Below are positions 4,077 through 63,112 of a DNA stretch of 64,000 bases, piece by piece (positions within the stretch are counted from its first letter, which is position 1; every line of letters begins with the position of its first letter). This DNA comes from Octopus vulgaris (taxonomy: Eukaryota): positions 1,116,001 through 1,180,000 of the forward strand of contig OX597833.1 in the NCBI GenBank assembly GCA_951406725.2. The letters run 5' to 3'. The notes beneath the pieces are model-generated. The model was given only the letters and a program-made list of their open reading frames with translations, ran no database searches and was not told the origin of the DNA. The position numbers were made by a program, and so were the translations under genes.

Positions 4077-4266
4077 ACATATATAATTGAAATTTACAGA
4101 AAAACAGGTATATAAACAAGCAGGTGTATTAGATTGATGCTCGGGAAATTGAGAAAGTATTTTATGTTTCGAGCGTACGCTCTTCAGCAGACAGGAACAC
4201 GATACACACGCGCATATACATATTTACGCACCGCAAGTAGAAAACTACTGTGTGAACAATTCTTAC

Positions 4267-4571
4267 CTGAGAATTATACACCTGTTTGGCAACAGCCTTT
4301 ACAATACCAATGACAATAGGTTCGAGACCCGGGCGGTCTGAGTAATAATGCAGTATCGTTGCTCCATCTTCGGCCCTTTCTGAGCATCTGAAAGAAGGAG
4401 CGCGCATACCTGGATAAATGCTGGCAAGATGGTCGTGTAGCGCATCTAAGTTCTGTAAGAAGTCTTTTGTGGTACCTCCAAGGACTTGCAGGATTTTATC
4501 GTAACCAGATTCTTGACAAAAGGCAAAAAACATTTCTCCAAACAATTCTAAGATGTCGCTAGCCGGAAGTT
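4267..4571 (-). CDS. GUCY1B1: Soluble guanylate cyclase beta subunit, H-NOX heme-binding exon
   Basis: ttgcag|AA...CAG|gtaaga; 305 bp; [27 protein letters not shown] (heme His), [17 protein letters not shown] (YxSxR). Confidence 0.97.
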
Positions 4572-4724
4572 CTGCAACAATGAAGAATATCGATTTCAAA
4601 TTTTGGGGAATCATAGGGTTCCATAAGGTAAAAAATGGTTGAGGTAACCGGGTCTTGAAGGACAATAATAATTACAACAACCACGATTGCCAGAATAAAC
4701 ATGGAATATGAGGAAATTGCTTAC

Positions 4725-7960: not shown

Positions 7961-8247
7961 GGCTCAAAAAGCAAAAAGCAATGCCATGTAGGGGGACATG
8001 AAGTTATGTACAGGGTGGTGTTCATGCAAAGAGTTCAGGCCATTTCTGGTCAAGAGAGACTTTGAACCGAGCGGTCGTCGGCATCTTCACTATCTCGTCC
8101 GGCAGCTTATTCCATGGATCCGCAACCCGGACGGAGAAAGCCCCTCTCCTTCGATTGAGATGAAATCGTCGCAGATAGAGCTTTTCGGAGTGACCCCGCA
8201 GCCGACGCTCTGGAGCAGGAGTGAAGAACAGCTCCTTCGAGAGGTTA
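7961..8247 (-). mobile_element. CR1 LINE 3' end running into the assembly gap
   Basis: Open frame FFTPAPERRLRGHSEKLY...FSVRVADPWNKLPDEIV...FKVSLD, stop at 8024-8022, short 3' UTR with gctttt repeats. Confidence 0.85.
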
Positions 8248-8248
8248 C

Positions 8249-8348
8249 NNNNNNNNNNNNNNNNNNNNNNNNNNNNNNNNNNNNNNNNNNNNNNNNNNNN
8301 NNNNNNNNNNNNNNNNNNNNNNNNNNNNNNNNNNNNNNNNNNNNNNNN
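8249..8348. other. Assembly gap (100 N)
   Basis: Run of N. Confidence 1.
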
Positions 8349-10249: not shown

Positions 10250-10672
10250 TCTCTTTACTCTTTTACTTGTTTCAGTCATTTGACTGCGGCCATGCTGGAG
10301 CACCGCCTTTAGTCGAGCAAATCGACCCCGGGACTTATTTTTTGTAAGCTCAGTACTTATTCTATCGGTCTCTTTTGCCGAACCGCTAAGTGACGGGGAC
10401 TTAAACACACCAGCATCAGTTGTCAAGCAATGCTAGGGGGACAAACACAAACACACAAACATATACACACACATACATATACATATATATATATACTTAT
10501 ACATATATACGACAGGCTTCTTTCAGTTTCCGTCTACCAAATCCACTCACAAGGCATTGATCGGCCCGGGGCTATAGCAGAAGACACTTGCCCAAGATGC
10601 CACGCAGTGGAACTGAACCCGGAACCATGTGGTTGGTTAGCAAGCTACTTACCACACAGCCACTCCTGCGCC
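10250..10672 (-). mobile_element. SINE family 1, full length
   Basis: Near-identical to 2067-2461. Confidence 0.9.
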
Positions 10673-12815: not shown

Positions 12816-13173
12816 TATATAATATTAATTAGAGACAAAACCACTATTATGCAAATCAAACAAAGAAAGACTTAATCCAATACATAAAAAAATTTATATA
12901 AATTAAATAAAATTAAGTTATCCACTACAATTGTTTCTTGTCACTTCTAAGGACATTCATCGGGTGGTTTTCAGACCTTCTATTCAATTTTAAATTTTAA
13001 ATTGAATAGAAGGTCTGAAAACCACCCGATGAATGTCCTTAGAAGTGACAAGAAACAATTGTAGTGGATAACTTAATTTTATTTAATTTATATAAATTTT
13101 TTTATGTATTGGATTAAGTCTTTCTTTGTTTGATTTGCATAATAGTGGTTTTGTCTCTAATTAATATTATATA
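12816..13173. mobile_element. Near-perfect ~358-bp palindromic element with two hammerheads (PLE-like inverted pLTRs)
   Basis: Arms of ~175 bp mirrored about 12994/12995; flanked by (TA)n. Confidence 0.85.
13022..13067 (+). ncRNA. Hammerhead ribozyme, CAATTG family (U4C core); mirror copy at 12922-12967 (-)
   Basis: ccac CCGATGA a tgtc-cttagaagt-gaca a GAAA caattg TA gtgg. Confidence 0.7.
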
Positions 13174-13496
13174 TGTATATATATATATGTAAATGTTTAT
13201 ATAGTGCATGAGTAGATGTTTGCAAGATAAACCATACTTTTTAAAATTCTTTTGAGTGTCCGTGTAGTCGCGAGAGGACACACACATGTCTATGTCACCA
13301 CCACTCAACCTTCAACCAGCAAAACATTTATGACGTGGAAGCTCCAGTGAAAAGTGCACGAGCACTAGCTAACTTAAGTTCAATCCTTCCCATGGAGCAC
13401 TGGCCGTCGACATCTTTACTCCGCTTGTCTTGGATCCGAGATGTCCTCTATGTTTCCTGCTTCGCTGCAGTTGCATCAAATGATATTGAATTTCAA

Positions 13497-14787
13497 GGCG
13501 GCGAACTGGCAGAACCGTTTGCGCGCCGGGCGAAATGCGTAGCGGTATTTCGTCTGCCGTTACGTTGTGAGTTCAAATTCCGCCGAGGTCGACTTTGCCT
13601 TTCATCCTTTCGGGGTCGATAAATTAAGTACCAGTTACGCACTGGGGTCGATGCAATCGACTAATACCTATGTCTGCCTTTGCTTGTCCCCTCTATGTTT
13701 AGCCCCTTGTGGGTAATAAAGAAATAGGTATTTCCTCTGCCGTTACGTTGTGAGTTCAAATTCCGCCGAGGTCGACTTTACCTTTCATCCTTTCGGGGTC
13801 GATAAATTAAGTACCAGTTACGCACTGGGGTCGATGCAATCGACTTAATACCTATGTCTGCCTTTGCTTGTCCCCTCTATGTTTAGCCCCTTGTGGGTAA
13901 TAAAGAAATAGGTATTTCCTCTGCCGTTACGTTGTGAGTTCAAATTCCGCCTAGGTCGACTTTACCTTTCATCCTTTCGGGGTCGATAAATTAAGTACCA
14001 GTTACGCACTGGGGTCGATGCAATCGACTTAATACCTATGTCTGCCTTTGCTTGTCCCCTCTATGTTTAGCCCCTTGTGGGTAATAAAGAAATAGGTATT
14101 TCCTCTGCCGTTACGTTGTGAGTTCAAATTCCGCCTAGGTCGACTTTACCTTTCATCCTTTCGGGGTCGATAAATTAAGTACCAGTTACGCACTGGGGTC
14201 GATGCAATCGACTTAATACCTATGTCTGCCTTTGCTTGTCCCCTCTATGTTTAGCCCCTTGTGGGTAATAAAGAAATAGGTATTTCCTCTGCCGTTACGT
14301 TGTGAGTTCAAATTCCGCCTAGGTCGACTTTACCTTTCATCCTTTCGGGGTCGATAAATTAAGTACCAGTTACGCACTGGGATCGATGCAATCGACTTAA
14401 TACCTATGTCTGCCTTTGCTTGTCCCCTCTATGTTTAGCCCCTTGTGGGTAATAAAGAAATAGGTATTTCCTCTGCCGTTACGTTGTGAGTTCAAATTCC
14501 GCCTAGGTTGACTTTACCTTTCATCCTTTCGGGGTCGATAAATTAAGTACCAGTTACGCACTGGGGTCGATGCAATCGACTTAATACCTATGTCTGCCTT
14601 TGGTATTTCGTCTGCCGTTACGTTGTGAGTTCAAATTCCGCCTAGGTCGACTTTACCTTTCATCCTTTCGGGGTCGATAAATTAAGTACCAGTTACGCAC
14701 TGGGGTCGATGCAATCGACTTAATACCTATGTCTGCCTTTGCTTGTCCCCTCTATGTTTAGCCCCTTGTGGGTAATAAAGAAATAGA
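13497..14787 (+). mobile_element. SINE family 2 (Meta-domain-like) with seven tandem body units
   Basis: One tRNA-like head, then units starting GGTATTTC at 13544, 13727, 13911, 14095, 14279, 14463 and 14602; contains GCCTTTCATCCTTTCGGGGTCGATAAATTAAGTACCAG. Confidence 0.9.
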
Positions 14788-15489
14788 TATTGAATTTCTG
14801 CATTTCAAATATTGCTGTGCAGTAACAAATGTCTTGCTGGTGGCAAATTCTGCCCTTCTCTGCTCTTGTTGGTTTTGGAATTCCATCGATGGTTCTGTAA
14901 GTTTTCTTTTTCCTAGGTAGACACGTTGGCCTTGTGCAAACCCATATTTACTACAGGGCATTGGTGGTTCATACTTGTCTGGCTTTTTTCCTTTGATATT
15001 TCCAGCATGGAAAGACCCCTTAAGGAGCTTGAATTCAACGGACATAGATCTAGTGGGGTCATTGAGACACATAAATAACCACATAGCAACGAGAACTGAG
15101 TTTTCTGGTGGATACCAGCGCAAGGCCTTAATTCATCACCAGCAAACTTTGAGTGGAGCGTTGTAGCAAATCGAAATGAAATGCTGTTATCAAGGAAATA
15201 ACTCAGCAGTGAGTCCAGAGATTCAACTCCGCACATTTCATTCGTGCGTCGAATACTCTAACAACTAAATCAGGCGCCTTCAAGAGATGACAAAATATTA
15301 TCTGCAACGATTGTTGCAACGGGGATTGATTGAAATGTTTCACATTTACTTAATGTGTCTAGTTAATGCGCTTGACGATAATAAATGAGATTTACACTCG
15401 CCTGCATATACATACATTTACAAACACATTTGTATGCATACATATATTTCGTATATGTATATAGACATATTAATTTGAACACACACATG

Positions 15490-22545: not shown

Positions 22546-23019
22546 GTATAAATTGTAACATCGTAACCTGCTGGAAGATAGAGATTCTGGAAATTATATT
22601 TTTCGATTCTGCTTTGACATGAGGCCTTTATTTATATATTTTAGTGTTTTATTCAGATCTGGACACTGTCCAGTTCTAAACAAAATCGCAATTGCGTGAT
22701 TTTAGTGAAAGCGTTTTGAATAATTTGGCAAAATGGTCAGGTTGCTTTGTCATGTTGGTATACTGCCAGTCTTGAATCACGAAAAATTCTACACAATGAC
22801 GACGAAGTTATGTGTGAGCAAATAACATGCGTGTGATACAATATGGCGGCAGAAATATTGGCCGAGTCCCAAACACCGACGTTTTGCCAAGGAACTAAAT
22901 CCGAATCACTATGTTCAGAGGGAAAGCAAGTGTAAAAAATAAAAGAAAATGTTGTCAGGGGTTGCTACGTCAGCAAGTACTTAGTCATGCAAGTGGTAGG
23001 CATATTGAAAATTTGGTTC

Positions 23020-24026
23020 TTATTTCTTTTTTGCCCACAAGGGGCTAAACATAGAGGGGACAAACAAGGACAGACAAAGGGATTAACTCGATCACATCAA
23101 CCCCAGTGCGTAACTGGTACTTAATTTATCGACCTCGAAAGGATGAAAGGCAAAGTTGACCTCAGCGGAATTTGAACTCAGAACGTAACGGCAGACGAAA
23201 TACGGCTACACATTTCGCCCGGCGAAAAAAATAATAAAAGGAACCCATTACTGGAATCCCTTTATCTTTTATCATTTGCTTGTTTATTCATTGGACTGTG
23301 GCCATGCTACAGTACCTATTTCTTTACTACCCGCAAGGGGCTAAACAAAGAGGGGACAAACAAGGACAGACAAATGGATTAAGTCAATTACATCGACCCC
23401 AGTGTGTAACTGGTACTTAATTTATCGACCTCGAAAGGATGAAAGGCAAAGTTGACCTCAGCGGAATTTGAACTCAGAACGTAACGGCAGACGAAATACG
23501 GCTACACATTTCGCCCGGCGAAAAAAATAATAAAAGGAACCCATTACTGGAATCCCTTTATCTTTTATCATTTGCTTGTTTATTCATTGGACTGCGGCCA
23601 TGCAACAGTACCTATTTCTTTACTACCCGCAAGGGGCTAAACAAAGAGGGGACAAACAAGGACAGACAAATGGATTAAGTCAATTACATCGACCCCAGTG
23701 TGTGACTGGTACTTAATTTATCGACCTCGAAAGGATGAAAGGCAAAGTTGACCTCGGCGGAATTTGAACTCAGAACGTAGCGGCAGACGAAATACCTATT
23801 TCTTTACTACCCACAACGGGCTAAACATTGAGGGGACAAACAAGGACAGACAAACGGATTAAGTCGACTACAATGGCCCCAGTACGTAAATGGTACTTAT
23901 TTAACCGACCTCGAAAGGATGACAGGCAAAGTTGACCTCGACGGAATTTGAACTCAGAACGTAGCGGCAGACGAAATACCGCTAAGCATTTCGCCCGGCG
24001 TGCTAACGTTTCTGCCAGCTCGCCGC
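23020..24026 (-). mobile_element. SINE family 2 multimer with a local ~296-bp tandem duplication
   Basis: Head ends at about 24026; dimer junction gaaatacctatttc at about 23790; the spacer ggaacccattactggaatccc occurs twice. Confidence 0.85.
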
Positions 24027-24180
24027 CTGGACTGATTGGAGAAAAAATAGACCCCAGCGCAGATTTTTAATTTCTTACAAACCTAGTTGTTATAAACGAC
24101 ATACATAGGAATGTCATTAACGATTTTGTCTTTAGCGGCTTTTCTTTGAGAGAGGATTAGAGGTATATAAACATCGTTTG

Positions 24181-27290: not shown

Positions 27291-28293
27291 TACTTTTATA
27301 TCTATATCTATATATATATACTTTTCTACTGGAGGCAAAAGGCCCCGAGCTTTTAGAGGAGAGGGCCAGACGATTAGATCGACGCTGAAACGATGAAAGG
27401 CAAAGTTAACCCCGGAGGAATTTTAACTCAGAACGTAAAGACAGAGGAAATACCTATTTCTTTACTAGCCACAAGGGGCTAAACACAGAGAGGACAAACA
27501 AGGACAGACAAACGGATTAAGTCGATTATATCGAACCCAGTGCGTAACTGGTACTTATTTAATCGACCCCGAAAGGATGAAAGGCAAAGTTGACACATAT
27601 ATATATATAGTATAACTACTGTTGATGTGTGCTCCTTGATCGTACAACTGCTGGTGCGGTTTGCCCCTTTAATTATTAACCTCATCAAGCTTATTCTCTT
27701 TGGGGATCGATGAAATAATACCAGCTGATCAGCGGGCTCGATGCAATCGACTAACCCCGCATCCGTCAAATATTACAGGCCTCCTACACATAGTCGAGAG
27801 GTTTATTGTCCATGTCTAAGGCGTCGAAATGGAAGAGTCGTTAACGAGTCCCATAAAATATCTACTAGCGTTTCTTTTGGCTCTTTATATTCTGGGTTCA
27901 AATTCCGCCGCGGTCCACTTTGCCTTCGAGGATTTTGATGTCGATAATCTAAGTACCATTTGAACAGGAGGGTCGGAGTAATCCACTTCTCCCGTTTCTC
28001 AAATTTACTGTCCTTTTGCCAAAAATTAGAAAAAAAAGATATTATCCACGTATTTGTAATTATTTTCCTTGAAGCCTTGACAAAAACTTAAGAACTTAAA
28101 AGTCTGTGTGCATTGTTGGCGAAGGCGTGGCTTTCTGGTACCTTATGGTTCGGCGTTCAGTCTCTCTGCGTGGAACCTTATGCGCCCAAAGACTTCTGAG
28201 AGGATTTGGTAGATGGAGAGTGAAATGGATTCGTCGTACACACACACACACACATACACACATACAGACACATACACACACACACACAAACAA

Positions 28294-32623: not shown

Positions 32624-33699
32624 CCTTTCTACTATAGGCACAACGCGTGACATTTTTGGGTAGGAGACCAGTGACTTTTGGCTTATTTCCGTCTACGGGA
32701 TCCAGCTCAGCAGTTATTGATCGACCCGCTGTTAATAAAACAAATGCTATGGTCGCGGTTAGGAGATCGATCTCAGAACTATAGATTCACAGAACGTACT
32801 CTTAATCACACAACCATAAGTAGAACATGGAGAAAAAAATTCTTCATAATAATTAAGATTTTCTGCAAATGTCATAACGCATTTCAACGAACACATTTTC
32901 AAAAGAAAACATGTATGCGTGTGTTCATACATATGTATGTGTGTGTGTGTGAGTGTGTGGGTGTGTGTGTGTGCTATATACATATATATATTTATTTATA
33001 TATATATGTATATATGTATGTGTGTATATATAAATATGTGTGTGTTTGTGCATATATGTGTATATGCATGCATGTAAGTATGTATGTATGTATGTATGTA
33101 AGTACGTACCTATGTATGGATGAATGAAGTGCGCGGCTTGACGAGAGTTTTACTTTTTACTTCAAAATGGTAATATTCCTGTTATTATCAAAGAATATTT
33201 AGAAAGGCCAAAAAATTAGAAAAATAAAGCTAAAATACAAAATTCATTGACACAAAAAAACACAACTCATAAATGCCATTGAGTCGGATAATTCAAAATA
33301 ATGATTTCCTATAAAGCTGGTTATTCATAAACATCAGATAACGGCCACTTCAAAAGCAAACTAACTTAAGAAGTGAATAAATTTTGTTAAAACCGAACTA
33401 TACAAAGGAGTTTGTAGTTTAACATATCGTGTCTAAAAATGTGTATAGAACAATTGAGAAATAAAGAACAGATATGGTAGAACTGTAAACATAATTTTAT
33501 ATCAAACCGCCTGGGTATATTCAAGCTTACATATAATGATTTAGCTCACACAGTTTAGTACAAACAGTTTACAGAAATTTTTGACAAACAACAAAGTTCC
33601 ACTGTTATACATGATATGTTATTATATTCCTTCTTTGCAACCACACACACACATGTACACATATAGATATACAGATACGTATATATACATATATAGCAG

Positions 33700-34065
33700 T
33701 GAAAGCTACACCGGTGCCAGATCGGGTAGACATTGCATAGTGCAAAAGATCCCAGCAATATCATCGCGCTTTAGGACCAGTTGCTGCAACAGCCTGGATT
33801 TCAGGCACCCACAGCTTTTTAATATTCTCCCAAAGAGCCTGAGGGACCTACACAAAGTGGATGTAAGTGTTTTCAAATCAAAACTGGACCTCTTCCTGTC
33901 GAGAGTCCCAGATGAACTTACCTCACGGCAGGAGATGCAAATGAGAGTAGTGATATCAAACTCCCTTATTCACCAAATTCCACATATTAGAGGAGACTCT
34001 CAATAATAACAGTGTAGCAAAACGGCGGTGCCCCAGCATGCCCGCAGCTCTGAGCTGAAACTACC
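33700..34065 (+). mobile_element. CR1-group LINE 3' end
   Basis: GRHC...QLFNILPKSLRDL...FKSKLDLFLSRVPDE...SNSLIHQ; 3' UTR GGCGGTGCCCCAGCATG. Confidence 0.85.
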
Positions 34066-34477: not shown

Positions 34478-34640
34478 TGCCTGTAAATTATTGTTGCTTA
34501 CTCATTTACTCTTTTACTTGTTTCAGTCATTTGACTGCGGCCATGCTGGAGCGCAACGTTTAGTCGAAGAAATCCACCCCAGGACGTATTCTTTGTAAGT
34601 CTCGTACTTATTATATCGGACACTTTTGCCGAACCGCTAA

Positions 34641-34976
34641 ACCAGTGCGTAACTGGTACTTGATATATCGACCCCGAAAGGCTAAAAGGCAAAGTCGACC
34701 TCGGCGGAATTTGAACTCAGAACGTAACGGCAGACGAAATACCTATTTCTTTATTACCCACAAGGGGCTAAACACAGAGAGGACAAACAAGGACAGACAG
34801 AGGTATTAAGTCGATTACATCGACCCCAGTGCGTAACGGGTACTTAATTTATCGACCCCGAAAGGATGAAAGGCAAAGTCGACCTCGGCGGAATTTGAAC
34901 TCTGGACGTAACGGCAGACGAAATACCGCAAAGCATTTCGCCTGGTGTGCTAACGTTTCTGCCAGCTCGCCGCCTT
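34641..34976 (-). mobile_element. SINE family 2 dimer
   Basis: Head plus unit, joined to a second partial unit through gaaatacctatttc at about 34736-34749. Confidence 0.85.
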
Positions 34977-38269: not shown

Positions 38270-38690
38270 CGCGGGAGTGGCTGTGTGGTAAGTAGCTTGC
38301 TAACCAATCACAATGGTTCCGGGTTCAGTCCCACTGCGTGGCATCTTGGGCAAGTGTCTTCTACTATAGCCTCGGGCCGACCAAAGCCTTGTGAGTGGAT
38401 TTGGTAGACGGAAACTGAAAGAAGCCTGTCGTATATATGTATATATATATATATATGTGTGTGTATATGTGTGTGTGTGTATTTGTGTGTCTGTGTTTGT
38501 CCCCCAGCATTGCTTGACAACCGATGCTGGTGTGTTTACGTCCCCGTCACTTAGCGGTTCTGCAAAAGAGACTGATAGAATAAGTACTGGGCTTACAAAG
38601 AATAAGTCCCGGAGTCGATTTGCTCGACTAAAGGCGGTGCTCCAGCATGGCCGCAGTCAAATGACTGAAACAAGTAAAAGAGTAAAGAGT
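38270..38690 (+). mobile_element. SINE family 1, full length
   Basis: A/B boxes, body and tail as in other copies. Confidence 0.9.
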
Positions 38691-40154
38691 ATAGGCTTGG
38701 AATGTTTGCGAATATCTGACTGAATCTTGTTAAGTCACAAATGCTGACCATTGCATATCTATAAGGGATGATTTACAATCTTGAGACAAAATCCTTGCGT
38801 CTTATGTAAATACCTCCTCTCTACTTCTCACCTTCTCTCTATCTTCTTTGTAGCTCTGCTTCTCTGTAGCTCTCTCTCTCTCTCTCTCACGACTCCTCTT
38901 GACTATTCTTTTCCGCCCTTCTCTAATATCGTAAAACAGACCTGCTAGATCAGTCAGTATTCAGGCACAAATCCCACGGAAGGGCACTGAACTCTCGAAT
39001 AAAATGATGACCTTCAGTTGCCAACTGAGGAGGAGAAACACACTGAAACAGTGTCAATGACATAACGTGAATTTACGAGAATAATTTGACTTGAAATTCA
39101 GTTTATAAAATGCACCCAAGCAACTTTGAACAGAGAAAGTCGTTAATAAAAGCCATTAATATCATGTTAGATAAAACAAGTGAGATAAGAGATTCATACG
39201 AAATAGATTGTTAGAAATACTTTGGAAATATTGACGTAGATTGAGTACAACATTAAAAGGAAAGACACGGTTAAGAGGATTTAAGTAGAGACGCATTAGG
39301 TTAAATCGGAGAAATCTAGCTAAATGCCAAAATAAGGTTATCAGAAAATAAACAAAGATCTCTCACATTTGGTAATACTTAATAATTATTTATTAGAGAA
39401 AGCGGTAAGATGGAAGAATAGTTACTGCGCCGGATTAAATAATTGGCAGCATTTTCCATGTCTTTTTGTTCCAAGTTCAAATTCCAACGAGGTCAACTTT
39501 TCCTTTTCCCCCTTCGGGGTGGAAATAAAAATACCAGTCTAGCACTAAGGTCGATCAAATAGACTATCCCACTCTTCCACAATTTCAGTCCTTTTACCAA
39601 TATCAGAAAGGATATTAGAGGAGGTAGCGAACTGAAAGAATTATTAGTACTTCAGAGAAAATACTTAGAAGCGTCTATTCTTCTTTTTGAATTCAAATGC
39701 CACCGAAGTCAACGTTACTTCTCATCATTTCGGGTTAATAAAATAGCTACCTGTTGAGAACACGGGTCGATTTATTCGAGTACACCCTCTCCCAAAAGTT
39801 CAGGCCTTGTGCCTATATTAAAAAAGGAATTATTATGAGTATATTAAAGAAGTGGCAGACTTAGCTGTGTAAGAGGTTTCATTTCCAACCATTTGGTCTT
39901 CAATTGTGCGTTTTCCTTGATTAACGATCCAAAACTGGAAGCAGAATTAACCTCATAGCTTTGAAAAGAAGGGGCCATAACACTACACTTGCTTATTTCC
40001 TAGCATTTTCCAAATATATATTATCCACTCGCAATTTAAACGCCAAATGCCAATTATACACGGGCATTATTAATGGGAACCTCAAAACCATTTTCAGATA
40101 AGGCTATATCAATCTTGCATCTTTGAATAGAAACAAAGCACACACGATACTCAC

Positions 40155-40847: not shown

Positions 40848-40850
<3 letters not shown>

Positions 40851-41539
40851 TAATGAAAAGAAATATAACAAGTAACTGCAGAATATGTGGAGATGGACAA
40901 GAAATAATAAATCATATTATCTCTAGCTGCCCAGTCCTGGCTAAGGAGGAATATATTCCCAGACATGACAGAGTTGGAACCTACATACATTGGAAGCTAT
41001 GCCAACATTATGGAATAACAACAGAAAAAAGATGGTATAAGCACACACCAGAAAAGGTCACAGAAAACGAGAAAGCAACCATACTCTGAGATATGCCGAT
41101 ACACACAGATAGAGAAATTAAGGCCAACAGACCAGATATAGTTGTCAGAGATCATGAAGAAAAAAATGCTTTCTAATTGATGTATCAATACCGGCAGATG
41201 ACAACGTGTCTCTAAAAGAAATGGAGAAACTTTCAAAATACAAAGACCTGGAAATAGAGGCAACCAGAATGTGGAATCTAAAAACAGAAACAATTCCTAT
41301 CATAGTAGGTGCATTAGGCATGATAGAAAAATATTCAGACAAATACATAACAAAAACACCAGGACTTACAAACACATATAACATACAGAAAATTGCACTA
41401 CTAGGCACTGCACACATCCAACGCAGAACACTTTACATACAATAACCATCAAAGCATCACAACAAATCACAGCACATACCCAAGGCACACAGAGCTGCGC
41501 TCAGTAGTGAAGTGAAAGCACGCTATAAAAATAAAACTA

Positions 41540-41543
<4 letters not shown>
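40848..41543 (+). mobile_element. R4/Dong-type LINE 3' end in (TAA)n
   Basis: CCHC knuckle CRICGDGQEIINHIISSC, RHD, RPD..D endonuclease motif, premature stop; near-identical to 32104-32555; (TAA)n both sides. Confidence 0.92.
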
Positions 41544-41596
<53 letters not shown>

Positions 41597-53277: not shown

Positions 53278-53683
53278 CTCTCTCTTTTACTCTCTTACTT
53301 GTTTCAGTCATTTGACTGCGGCCATGCTGGAGCACCACATTTAGTCGAGCAACTCGACCCCGGGACTTATTCTTTGTAAGCCCAGTACTTATTCTATCGG
53401 TCTCTTTTGCCGAACCGCTAAGTGACGGCGACGTAAACACACAAGCATCGGTCGTCAAGCAATGCTGGAGGGACAAACACAGACACACAAACATACACAC
53501 ACATATATATATACATATATACGACGGGCTTCTTTCAGTTTCCGTCTACCAAATCCACTCACAAAGCTTTGGTCGGCCCGAGGCTATAGTAGAAGACACT
53601 TGCCCAAGATGCCACGCAGTGGGACTGAACCCAGAACCATGTGGTTGGTAAGCAAGCTATTTACCACACAGCCACTCCTGCGC
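53277..53683 (-). mobile_element. SINE family 1, full length
   Basis: As other copies; an older copy lies at 52790-53060. Confidence 0.9.
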
Positions 53684-53756
53684 CTACATACATATACCTA
53701 AATAATATATATATATGTATATACATATATATATGCATACTTATATATATACAAAG

Positions 53757-59505: not shown

Positions 59506-59548
59506 CATAGGAGTATATAAGAAAATAGACAAGTATAAGGTATAAGAA

Positions 59549-59778
59549 GGCGGAGAGCTGGCAGAAACGTTAGCATGCCGGACGAAATGCTTTGCGGTAT
59601 TTCGTCTACCGTTACGTTCTGAGTTCAAATTCCGCTGAGGTCGACTTTGCCTTTCATCCTTTCGGGGTCGATAAATTAAGTACCAGTTACGCACTGGGGT
59701 CGATGTAATCGACTTAATCCGTTTGTCTGTCCTTGTTTTTCCTCTCTGTGTTTAGCCCCTTGTGGGTAGTAAAGAAAT
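59549..59778 (+). mobile_element. SINE family 2, full-length monomer
   Basis: Head with A/B boxes plus one body; candidate TSD aggtataag at 59538 and 59779. Confidence 0.88.
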
Positions 59779-60275
59779 AGGTATAAGTTCATATATCTGC
59801 CTTGTGAGCAGATTTGGTAGACGGAAACTGAAAGAAGCCCGTCGTATATATATATGTGTGTGTGTGTGCCTTTGTATTTATGTTTGTAGGCTCCCACCAC
59901 CATCGCTTGACAACCGATGCTCCGGTATATATGTCTCCGTAACTTCGCGGTTCGACATAACGGCGGTCAAATTTCTGAAACGCGTAAAAGAATAAAATAA
60001 TGTGTGCGTGAGTATGTGGGTGTGTGTGGGTGGGGGGAATTATGTATTATAATTTAAAGTTAGGCAAACTTTGAATTACTGAAAGTCTTGAAAACTTTTT
60101 AATTATGGATGAAACATAACGAACAATCGTAAGACTTGTGTGAGCAGACAAAATTTTTGTCTTTCAGAAGTGCCGGAAATGGTGGAATACGCTTCCTATT
60201 GAAGCCAAGGAACTTATTCAATTATTTAACATTTTTAAAAGCAGCCAGTGAATCATGGTGCTTCTTTAAACAAGA

Positions 60276-61887: not shown

Positions 61888-62070
61888 CCTTTCTTTACTA
61901 CCCACAAGGGGCTAAACACAGAGGGGCTAAACAAGGACAGACAAACGGATTAAGTCGATTATATCGACCCCAGTGCGTAACTGGTACTTAATTTATCGAC
62001 CCCGAAAGGATGAAAGGCAAAGTCGACCTCGCCGGAATTTGAACTCAGAACGTAACGGCAGACGAAATAC
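61888..62070 (-). mobile_element. Head-less SINE family 2 unit with target-site duplication
   Basis: Starts at GTATTTCGTCTG; flanked by aagtgaaacc on both sides. Confidence 0.85.
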
Positions 62071-62559: not shown

Positions 62560-63112
62560 CATAAGTTTCTTTATTGGCCACACAGGGCTGCACGCAGATG
62601 GGACAAGTTACAAGGTAGAGCTTTTCTTTTGGGGGATGAAAAAAATGGGGTGGCGTAGGTTTTCTATCAAGAGGGATCGTAAAAGGGAAGAAAAGAACAA
62701 AAAAAAATAAAAAATGAAAAAAATAAATAGAATAAAAAATAAAAAGAATAAAAGAAAAAAAAAGGGAAAGGAACAAAAGAAAAGAGAAATGAAAAAAGAA
62801 GAAAAGGGGGAAAAAAGGGGGAAGAGGAAAAAAAAAGAAAAAAGAACGATCAATAGGGATCGTGTATCACAGTGTTATGATATATGGTGTAAAGGGGAAA
62901 GCAAGTAAGGTTTATCCGTGGGAAGAAAAGCCTACGAAAAAGACCACGGTAACCTTGGTCAATATTGTTATATGTTACCACATTTGTTTGCAAGTGGGTA
63001 ACCCTCTGTTTTCAATTTCTGGGTTCATAGGATCATGCTCAAGGTGGCTTCGTCATTCATACGTGCCATCCTTGCTACATTCACCCATCTTTTTTTAAAA
63101 CATTCGCTAGAC
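62560..63112 (-). mobile_element. Probable L1/Tx1-type LINE 3' end in a GATA/GACA microsatellite
   Basis: Short ORF end SECFKKRWVNVARM...L*, pyrimidine-rich 3' UTR, AATAAA near the end, acacagata on both flanks. Confidence 0.45.

Follow-up and report, generated by a model that had tools for sequence, protein, structure and literature searches.

A head-less SINE array in Octopus vulgaris and a sequence apparently shared by its restart site and its target sites

Introduction

Head-less SINE arrays are already known from squamates and bivalves. In the sections of the squamate report used here, the satellite sSat3Ati2 has a 179-nt unit made of a partial head, the body and a LINE-derived region, the unit counts of SINE satellites differ between orthologous loci, and it is left open how a dispersed SINE becomes tandem with one unit boundary at many loci (PMC10702118). 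In the bivalve Scapharca broughtonii, the relevant passages describe TSD1-(SINE)n-TSD1 arrays with a head on the first unit only and one TSD pair (PMC11481361). Non-LTR retrozymes are characterised by a type I hammerhead ribozyme and by RNA in circular form (PMC7229834; 10.64898/2026.07.22.740005). The octopus tRNA-derived SINEs OR1 and OR2 go back to Ohshima and Okada (1994), as cited in PMC4758252, PMC4824008 and PMC5804259.

Here we describe a SINE array in a 64-kb stretch of Octopus vulgaris DNA, hereafter the window. The array is like the bivalve arrays in being formed by a mollusc SINE, with one head, head-truncated repeats and a single flanking TSD pair. The first and middle bivalve units are without a 3′ tail, which fits internal duplication, whereas five of the six non-terminal octopus units have the full tail; the bivalve passages report no cross-locus junction or link to target sites (PMC11481361). 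As in sSat3Ati2 and sSat3Gja1, the unit corresponds to a SINE that lacks part of the head, found at many loci and homogeneous within a locus. The squamate sections describe satellites that grow by unequal recombination, with a subtelomeric tendency, whereas most junction loci of the octopus family are dispersed dimers and its monomer targets are restart-like (PMC10702118). With retrozymes, as far as the same two sources go, the family shares short tandem monomers, multimers from dimers upward, occasional TSDs and occurrence in molluscs, but it carries a polymerase III-type head and has no hammerhead core (PMC7229834; 10.64898/2026.07.22.740005). Partial tandems of Penelope-like elements are likewise head to tail with a short 3′ extension; there, in the passages used, 30-40 bp follow the pseudo-LTR and the truncated copy lies upstream, whereas the octopus SINE has one to five contiguous matching bases and the head on the first unit (PMC8557442, PMC3846280). 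The parts of PMC3531059, PMC10886601, PMC9977147 and PMC9795677 at hand hold no bearing result.

Octopus SINE multimers, or a match between restart and target sites, have no account in the literature searched, a set with most subscription papers and Repbase outside it. Ohshima and Okada reportedly named a third octopus SINE family, OK, in 1994. OK, OR1 and OR2, as far as the accounts used here describe them, come from the same host genus as the array family and are tRNA-derived SINEs, as the array family is assumed to be; the 1994 paper or Repbase may describe the present family. The link that ties the restart to the target sites appears to be new, on seven loci in one window.

Results

The repeat is a SINE-like monomer of 233 bp, interspersed and within the size of tRNA-derived SINEs (<1 kb). 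A profile search of the 64-kb window found seven young loci, with bodies 2-9% diverged from the young majority sequence, and about eight older, diverged copies. An A-box-like site at monomer position 13 matches 10 of 11 bases in the array head, the best match lying elsewhere in loci B and G, and a B-box-like site stands at position 75 in all three copies scored; the patterns behind these calls are what we take to be the A- and B-box consensus. We assume a tRNA origin from these sites. ARAGORN called no tRNA, and the Rfam tRNA model gave no match even at E up to 10.

A tail-only fragment (62566-62614, minus strand) is similar to the last 46 bases of the SINE (E 5e-7) and has no ORF attached; it is possibly the 3′ end of a partner LINE. 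The 3′ regions downstream of three LINE-like fragments in the window gave no match to the SINE tail profile. Two degenerate LINE-like C-terminal fragments (8022-8250, minus; 33545-34006, plus), presumably CR1/L2-like, have no Pfam match, and their 3′ regions are unlike the SINE tail. At 40850-41545 (plus), the 3′ fragment of a non-LTR retrotransposon lies between (AAT)n tracts, with a weak zf-RVT match; we take it to resemble Dong/R4 elements. The window also holds a soluble guanylate cyclase beta-1 exon (4264-4575, minus) that is 99% identical to Octopus sinensis and places the window in the genus Octopus, and a second abundant composite repeat (e.g. 10254-10672, minus; 38274-38686, plus; 53283-53689, minus), which has a SINE-like 5′ half, an internal (TA)n/(TG)n tract and a 3′ half that ends in short slippage repeats and has a core motif in common with the array SINE.

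Further copies were sought outside the window. Motifs from the window were absent from the texts and supplements searched, and two scans of bacterial and archaeal genome contigs, made to detect contaminating octopus DNA, gave no further copies. With peptide translations of the SINE, one O. bimaculoides protein was found to cover the body, not the junction, and further such searches gave nothing. None of the five attempts produced a junction copy outside the window.

The array (13495-14785) had been read from the sequence alone as a single head followed by seven bodies of about 184 bp with one fixed restart, and the unit starts (at GGTATTTC: 13544, 13727, 13911, 14095, 14279, 14463 and 14602) and lengths (a 49-bp head, then 183, 184, 184, 184, 184, 139 and 184 bp) bear this out. 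Its features are as follows.

13482-13494 (+): left TSD, 13 bp, starting GATATT (5 of 6 bases of the restart hexamer); identical to 14786-14798
13495-13543 (+): lone 49-bp SINE head, differing at five places from the majority sequence of the four young heads
13527-13556 (+): head hairpin, 12-13 bp; the restart base opens its 3′ arm
13544-13726 (+): body unit 1, 183 bp, with the B-box-like site; ancestral at unit positions 9, 42 and 54
13727-14462 (+): units 2-5, 184 bp each, 98.9-100% identical, with junctions GAAATA/GGTATTTC
14463-14601 (+): unit 6, 139 bp, 3′-truncated; reaches the restart base without a tail
14602-14785 (+): unit 7, 184 bp, 3′ end GAAATA
14786-14798 (+): right TSD, 13 bp, a perfect copy of the left TSD

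Details of the sequence-only reading needed correction. The array begins at 13495, not 13497, as AA precedes GGCGG in three of four young heads. The GAAATA/GG junction holds at five of the six internal junctions, and at the remaining one unit 6 stops at base 139 to give CCTTT/GGTATTTC. As in an sSat, the unit is shorter than the SINE, the terminal unit reaches the SINE end, and the middle units number five (at least four are needed). The proposed search for TSDs around the whole array gave the perfect 13-bp pair, an outcome that does not separate the models considered below. An assembly artefact is unlikely given this TSD and the ordered shared variants; the copy number is as assembled. About 310 bp upstream lies a palindrome (12816-13173) with 179-bp arms, 99% complementary, and no spacer.

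The 14-mer spanning the junction, GAAATAGGTATTTC, occurs eight times in the window against 0.07 expected. Five copies are in the array, and the other three, all on the minus strand, are at 23789-23802, 27447-27460 and 34736-34749, where the junction had been noted before (near 23790, 27450 and 34740). The loci outside the array are listed here.

23613-24029 (-): locus B, a head and two bodies, 89.7% identical, with three shared variants; then GGTACT
23021-23520 (-): two 5′-truncated copies within a 296-bp repeat; the last copy is followed by AGAACC
27320-27594 (-): locus C, a young unit (27455-27594, 5′ part lost) joined to an old-subfamily body through the standard junction
34642-34976 (-): locus G, a head, a complete body and the first 102 bp of a further body, which continues into the 3′ half of another repeat family
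59547-59779 (+): locus K, a monomer with head; 8-bp TSD (59539-59546, 59780-59787) starting GGTAT
61888-62070 (-): locus L, a head-less monomer from position 51; 13-bp TSD starting GGTTTC
39400-39828 (+): old-subfamily tandem, both copies with heads; a contrast case

The identical junction is thus present at four of the seven young loci. The restart base is the G at monomer position 50. It is also used at the aberrant junction between units 6 and 7, where the tail is absent and the microhomology is one base, and, within one base, by locus L, a head-less monomer flanked by a TSD that overlaps the first three bases of the element. Because the same base is used at four loci, at the unit 6/7 junction and within one base at locus L, these results support a site-specific origin of the junction, as had been proposed. 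Three young loci are 5′-truncated, locus L and two others that start near positions 30 and 94.

Locus C gives a view of such a junction between subfamilies. The 3′ part of the body joined at 27454 scores 48 and 41.5 against old tails and 31 or less against young ones, which suggests that a young copy inserted at position 50 of an older one; recombination between neighbours is possible, as the upstream part is lost. Two SINE copies stand head to head at 27594-27697, 102 bp apart and both without 5′ halves, as if the centre of an inverted pair had been lost. At locus B, a TSD was looked for and none was found. At 34498-34743 (minus), where the second unit of dimer G breaks off at unit base 102, the 3′ half of the second family follows directly, through either a template switch or a deletion. 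The second copy retains its head in the old tandems at 39400/39622 and 27697/27818; in the former, TATTAGAG both precedes the first copy and separates it from the second, an arrangement resembling TSD-(SINE-TSD)n.

The restart had been placed at the loop edge of a hairpin. This hairpin is predicted in all four full-length young copies and is retained, with changed pairs, in old copy E. The placement holds for the array head, where the restart G is the last loop base; in three consensus-like heads it is instead the first base of the 3′ arm. A further proposal, that the tail GAAATA replaces the 5′ arm of the hairpin, is not borne out by structure prediction: the tail is complementary to TATTTC, but their predicted pairing probability is below 1e-5 in all four full monomers (0.01-0.94 in head-less units). 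The junction is likely to be set by a 6-bp microhomology between tail and head. A template switch by reverse transcriptase is likely, as had been suggested, with this microhomology as the guide and not the replacement of a hairpin arm.

The same sequence bears on the target sites. Young TSDs of variable length (13, 8 and 13 bp) were found at three of the five young loci with a free 3′ end. The left copies, which were in the target before insertion, agree with GGTATT at their starts in 5, 5 and 4 of six positions; P is 6.3e-6 when window 6-mers serve as the background and ranges from 1e-6 to 2e-4 when lengths of 3-8 are used. Along the monomer, position 50 is the best fit to the three starts (14 of 18, the next 11 of 18), so that one sequence is common to the restart site and to the choice of target. 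The bases that follow the five young 3′ ends with non-SINE flanks match GGTATT at 5, 5, 5, 4 and 2 of 6, the poorest being the end at 23021. The flank there, AGAACC (23015-23020, minus), equals positions 17-22 of the array head and could reflect a second junction class or tail slippage. Since all five young ends stop at the target match, with no tail bases past it, an RNA extension after the tail is inferred and not seen.

Old and young tails can be aligned, and TATT, after the GAAA-like end, stands in the column of the junction in three of eight old tails and one or two columns off in two more. In controls whose tail ends were placed by eye, three of five old copies reach 5 of 6 within three bases of the tail end, against none of nine copies of an unrelated family. 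The old-copy result fits a native tail sequence and shows that the GGTATT-like motif is not confined to young copies. In the heads of old copies E, F, H1 and I, CATTT takes the place of the TATTT of young heads, and the 6-base direct repeat between the native tail and positions 50-55 thus appears to be specific to the young subfamily. The target-site evidence comprises seven young loci and three TSDs in one window.

We also considered how one locus came to hold seven units. Identity among the array units is 97-100%, and that with other young copies 82-95%; all array units carry six fixed changes that are absent from every other young copy. Of six variable sites within the array, three are singletons and three are shared, by units 2-6, 3-7 and 2-7; at unit positions 9 and 42, each of the four possible haplotypes occurs. 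A single rolling pass over one RNA is excluded, because repeated copying of one template gives only singletons. To judge from this variant pattern, duplication at the DNA level, together with one conversion or more, likely turned a short multimer into the seven-unit array; several template switches on a multimeric source are a possible origin. DNA-level exchange can be seen elsewhere in the window. At 23021-23796, unequal crossover between adjacent copies is visible: the middle copy is a hybrid that agrees with one neighbour in its 5′ variants and with the opposite neighbour in its 3′ variants. Unequal crossover, which the sequence-only reading had dismissed, is the best explanation for the copy number.

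Discussion

R2 reverse transcriptase jumps between templates, and tail-to-target annealing occurs in LINE retrotransposition. The R2 jump starts where the enzyme runs off one template and leads to the end of the next, whereas the octopus SINE uses a fixed internal site; R2 and LINE behaviour supplies the enzymatic steps that we assume for this SINE. We propose, with moderate confidence, that GGUAUU after the RNA tail primes on GGTATT-like DNA and returns the cDNA to position 50. RNA polymerase III would transcribe a monomer or multimer; with no TTTT in the array up to 14873, transcripts could span an entire multimer and spread the junction. The GGUAUU stretch would anneal to a nicked GGTATT-like target, older SINE copies at position 50 included. 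The cDNA at positions 50-55, in the 3′ arm of the hairpin, could then re-anneal to the GGUAUU stretch at an RNA 3′ end, and this would add a head-less unit with the invariant junction. Multimers could then serve as templates, and at 13495-14785 a short multimer would later have grown to seven units by DNA-level duplication and at least one conversion. The priming and template-switch steps are those that we infer from known LINE behaviour. This microhomology model does not explain the unit 6/7 junction, at position 50 with a one-base microhomology. The proposal and the four alternatives below are not fully exclusive.

The junction may instead have arisen once, all multimers descending from dimeric or multimeric masters. 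Read-through GGUAUU would anneal to targets, and the head-less monomer would be a truncation at the junction. Such masters would account for the target bias without new enzymology, and the same lack of TTTT makes read-through possible. The units of dimer G, 93.1% identical, have also diverged as much as dispersed copies. Descent from one dimer fits less well with the variants, however. The second units of B and G have no derived variant in common, and neither dimer has been homogenised since insertion; the two units of B share three variants, and those of the array share their six private changes, as expected if the junction was re-made from one unit at each locus. This pattern speaks mildly for a junction that is made anew rather than inherited, and we regard the single origin as unlikely, if still the best placed of the alternatives.

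A partner endonuclease that prefers N^GGTATT-like DNA would offer a different route, in which new copies enter position 50 of existing ones and lose the head by annealing to the homologous overhang. The TSD bias and the young-into-old junction of locus C could both be explained in this manner, as could locus B, which lies in another repeat at a GGT-starting site, and the unit 6/7 junction, which uses position 50 independently of the tail. This route predicts that adjoining units are unrelated and that the first is the younger. The near-identity of the array units is against the former, and locus B is against the latter, with 17 changes in unit 1 and nine in unit 2. We consider this route quite unlikely, second among the alternatives.

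The sequence-only reading favoured RNA processing: the RNA would be cut at C49^G50, and the 184-nt body circularised, or jumped end to end, as reverse transcriptase rolled round it. In a related form, cuts at C49^G50 and at each A^G junction would free a head-less RNA of 184 nt, in linear or circular form, for a LINE reverse transcriptase to copy and insert, alone or into older copies. Locus L, head-less, TSD-flanked and starting at position 51, fits such an RNA, and the unit 6/7 junction without microhomology and the restart at the edge of a hairpin loop that old copy E also has, with changed pairs, point the same way. The circle found no support in the remaining data. No Rfam family reached the gathering score in the window (matches at E up to 10 were at chance level), and the hammerhead core was absent from both strands of the two loci scanned. 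The junction hairpin has a predicted energy of -1.4 kcal/mol and a probability above 0.1 in one of four circles, and the shared variants are incompatible with a single rolling pass. Locus K, with both a head and a GGTAT target, is impossible from a head-less circle. Two other structures were tried and rejected: an HDV-like first helix (GGUAUUU/AAGUACC, in the head-less unit) exceeds a probability of 0.01 in only one of four linear copies, and a stem around the 45 bases that unit 6 lacks, seen in a short fold, has a probability of 0.000 in the two-unit context. We hold both the rolling circle and the freed 184-nt RNA to be improbable, third in order here. If true, the cleaved RNA would be a ribozyme-free, tRNA-headed counterpart of retrozymes.

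Finally, it is very unlikely that all junctions came from DNA slippage in monomers already inserted, with position 50 and a GGTAT-like 3′ flank as the two repeats, since, even with that 5-bp direct repeat present at monomer K and DNA-level exchange active in the window, junctions at four of seven young loci would seem too many for 5-6 bp over 184 bp, and the target bias, locus C and locus L would be unexplained.

If priming by the GGUAUU stretch is correct, the octopus family offers a countable rule for what the squamate work leaves open: a short sequence repeated in tail and head would determine where units join, bias insertion and direct new copies into older ones. Because 11.6% of the O. 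vulgaris assembly consists of SINEs (PMC13282606), one genome-wide count could test this rule. The finding also matters for annotation, as SINE multimers split or inflate SINE consensus libraries.
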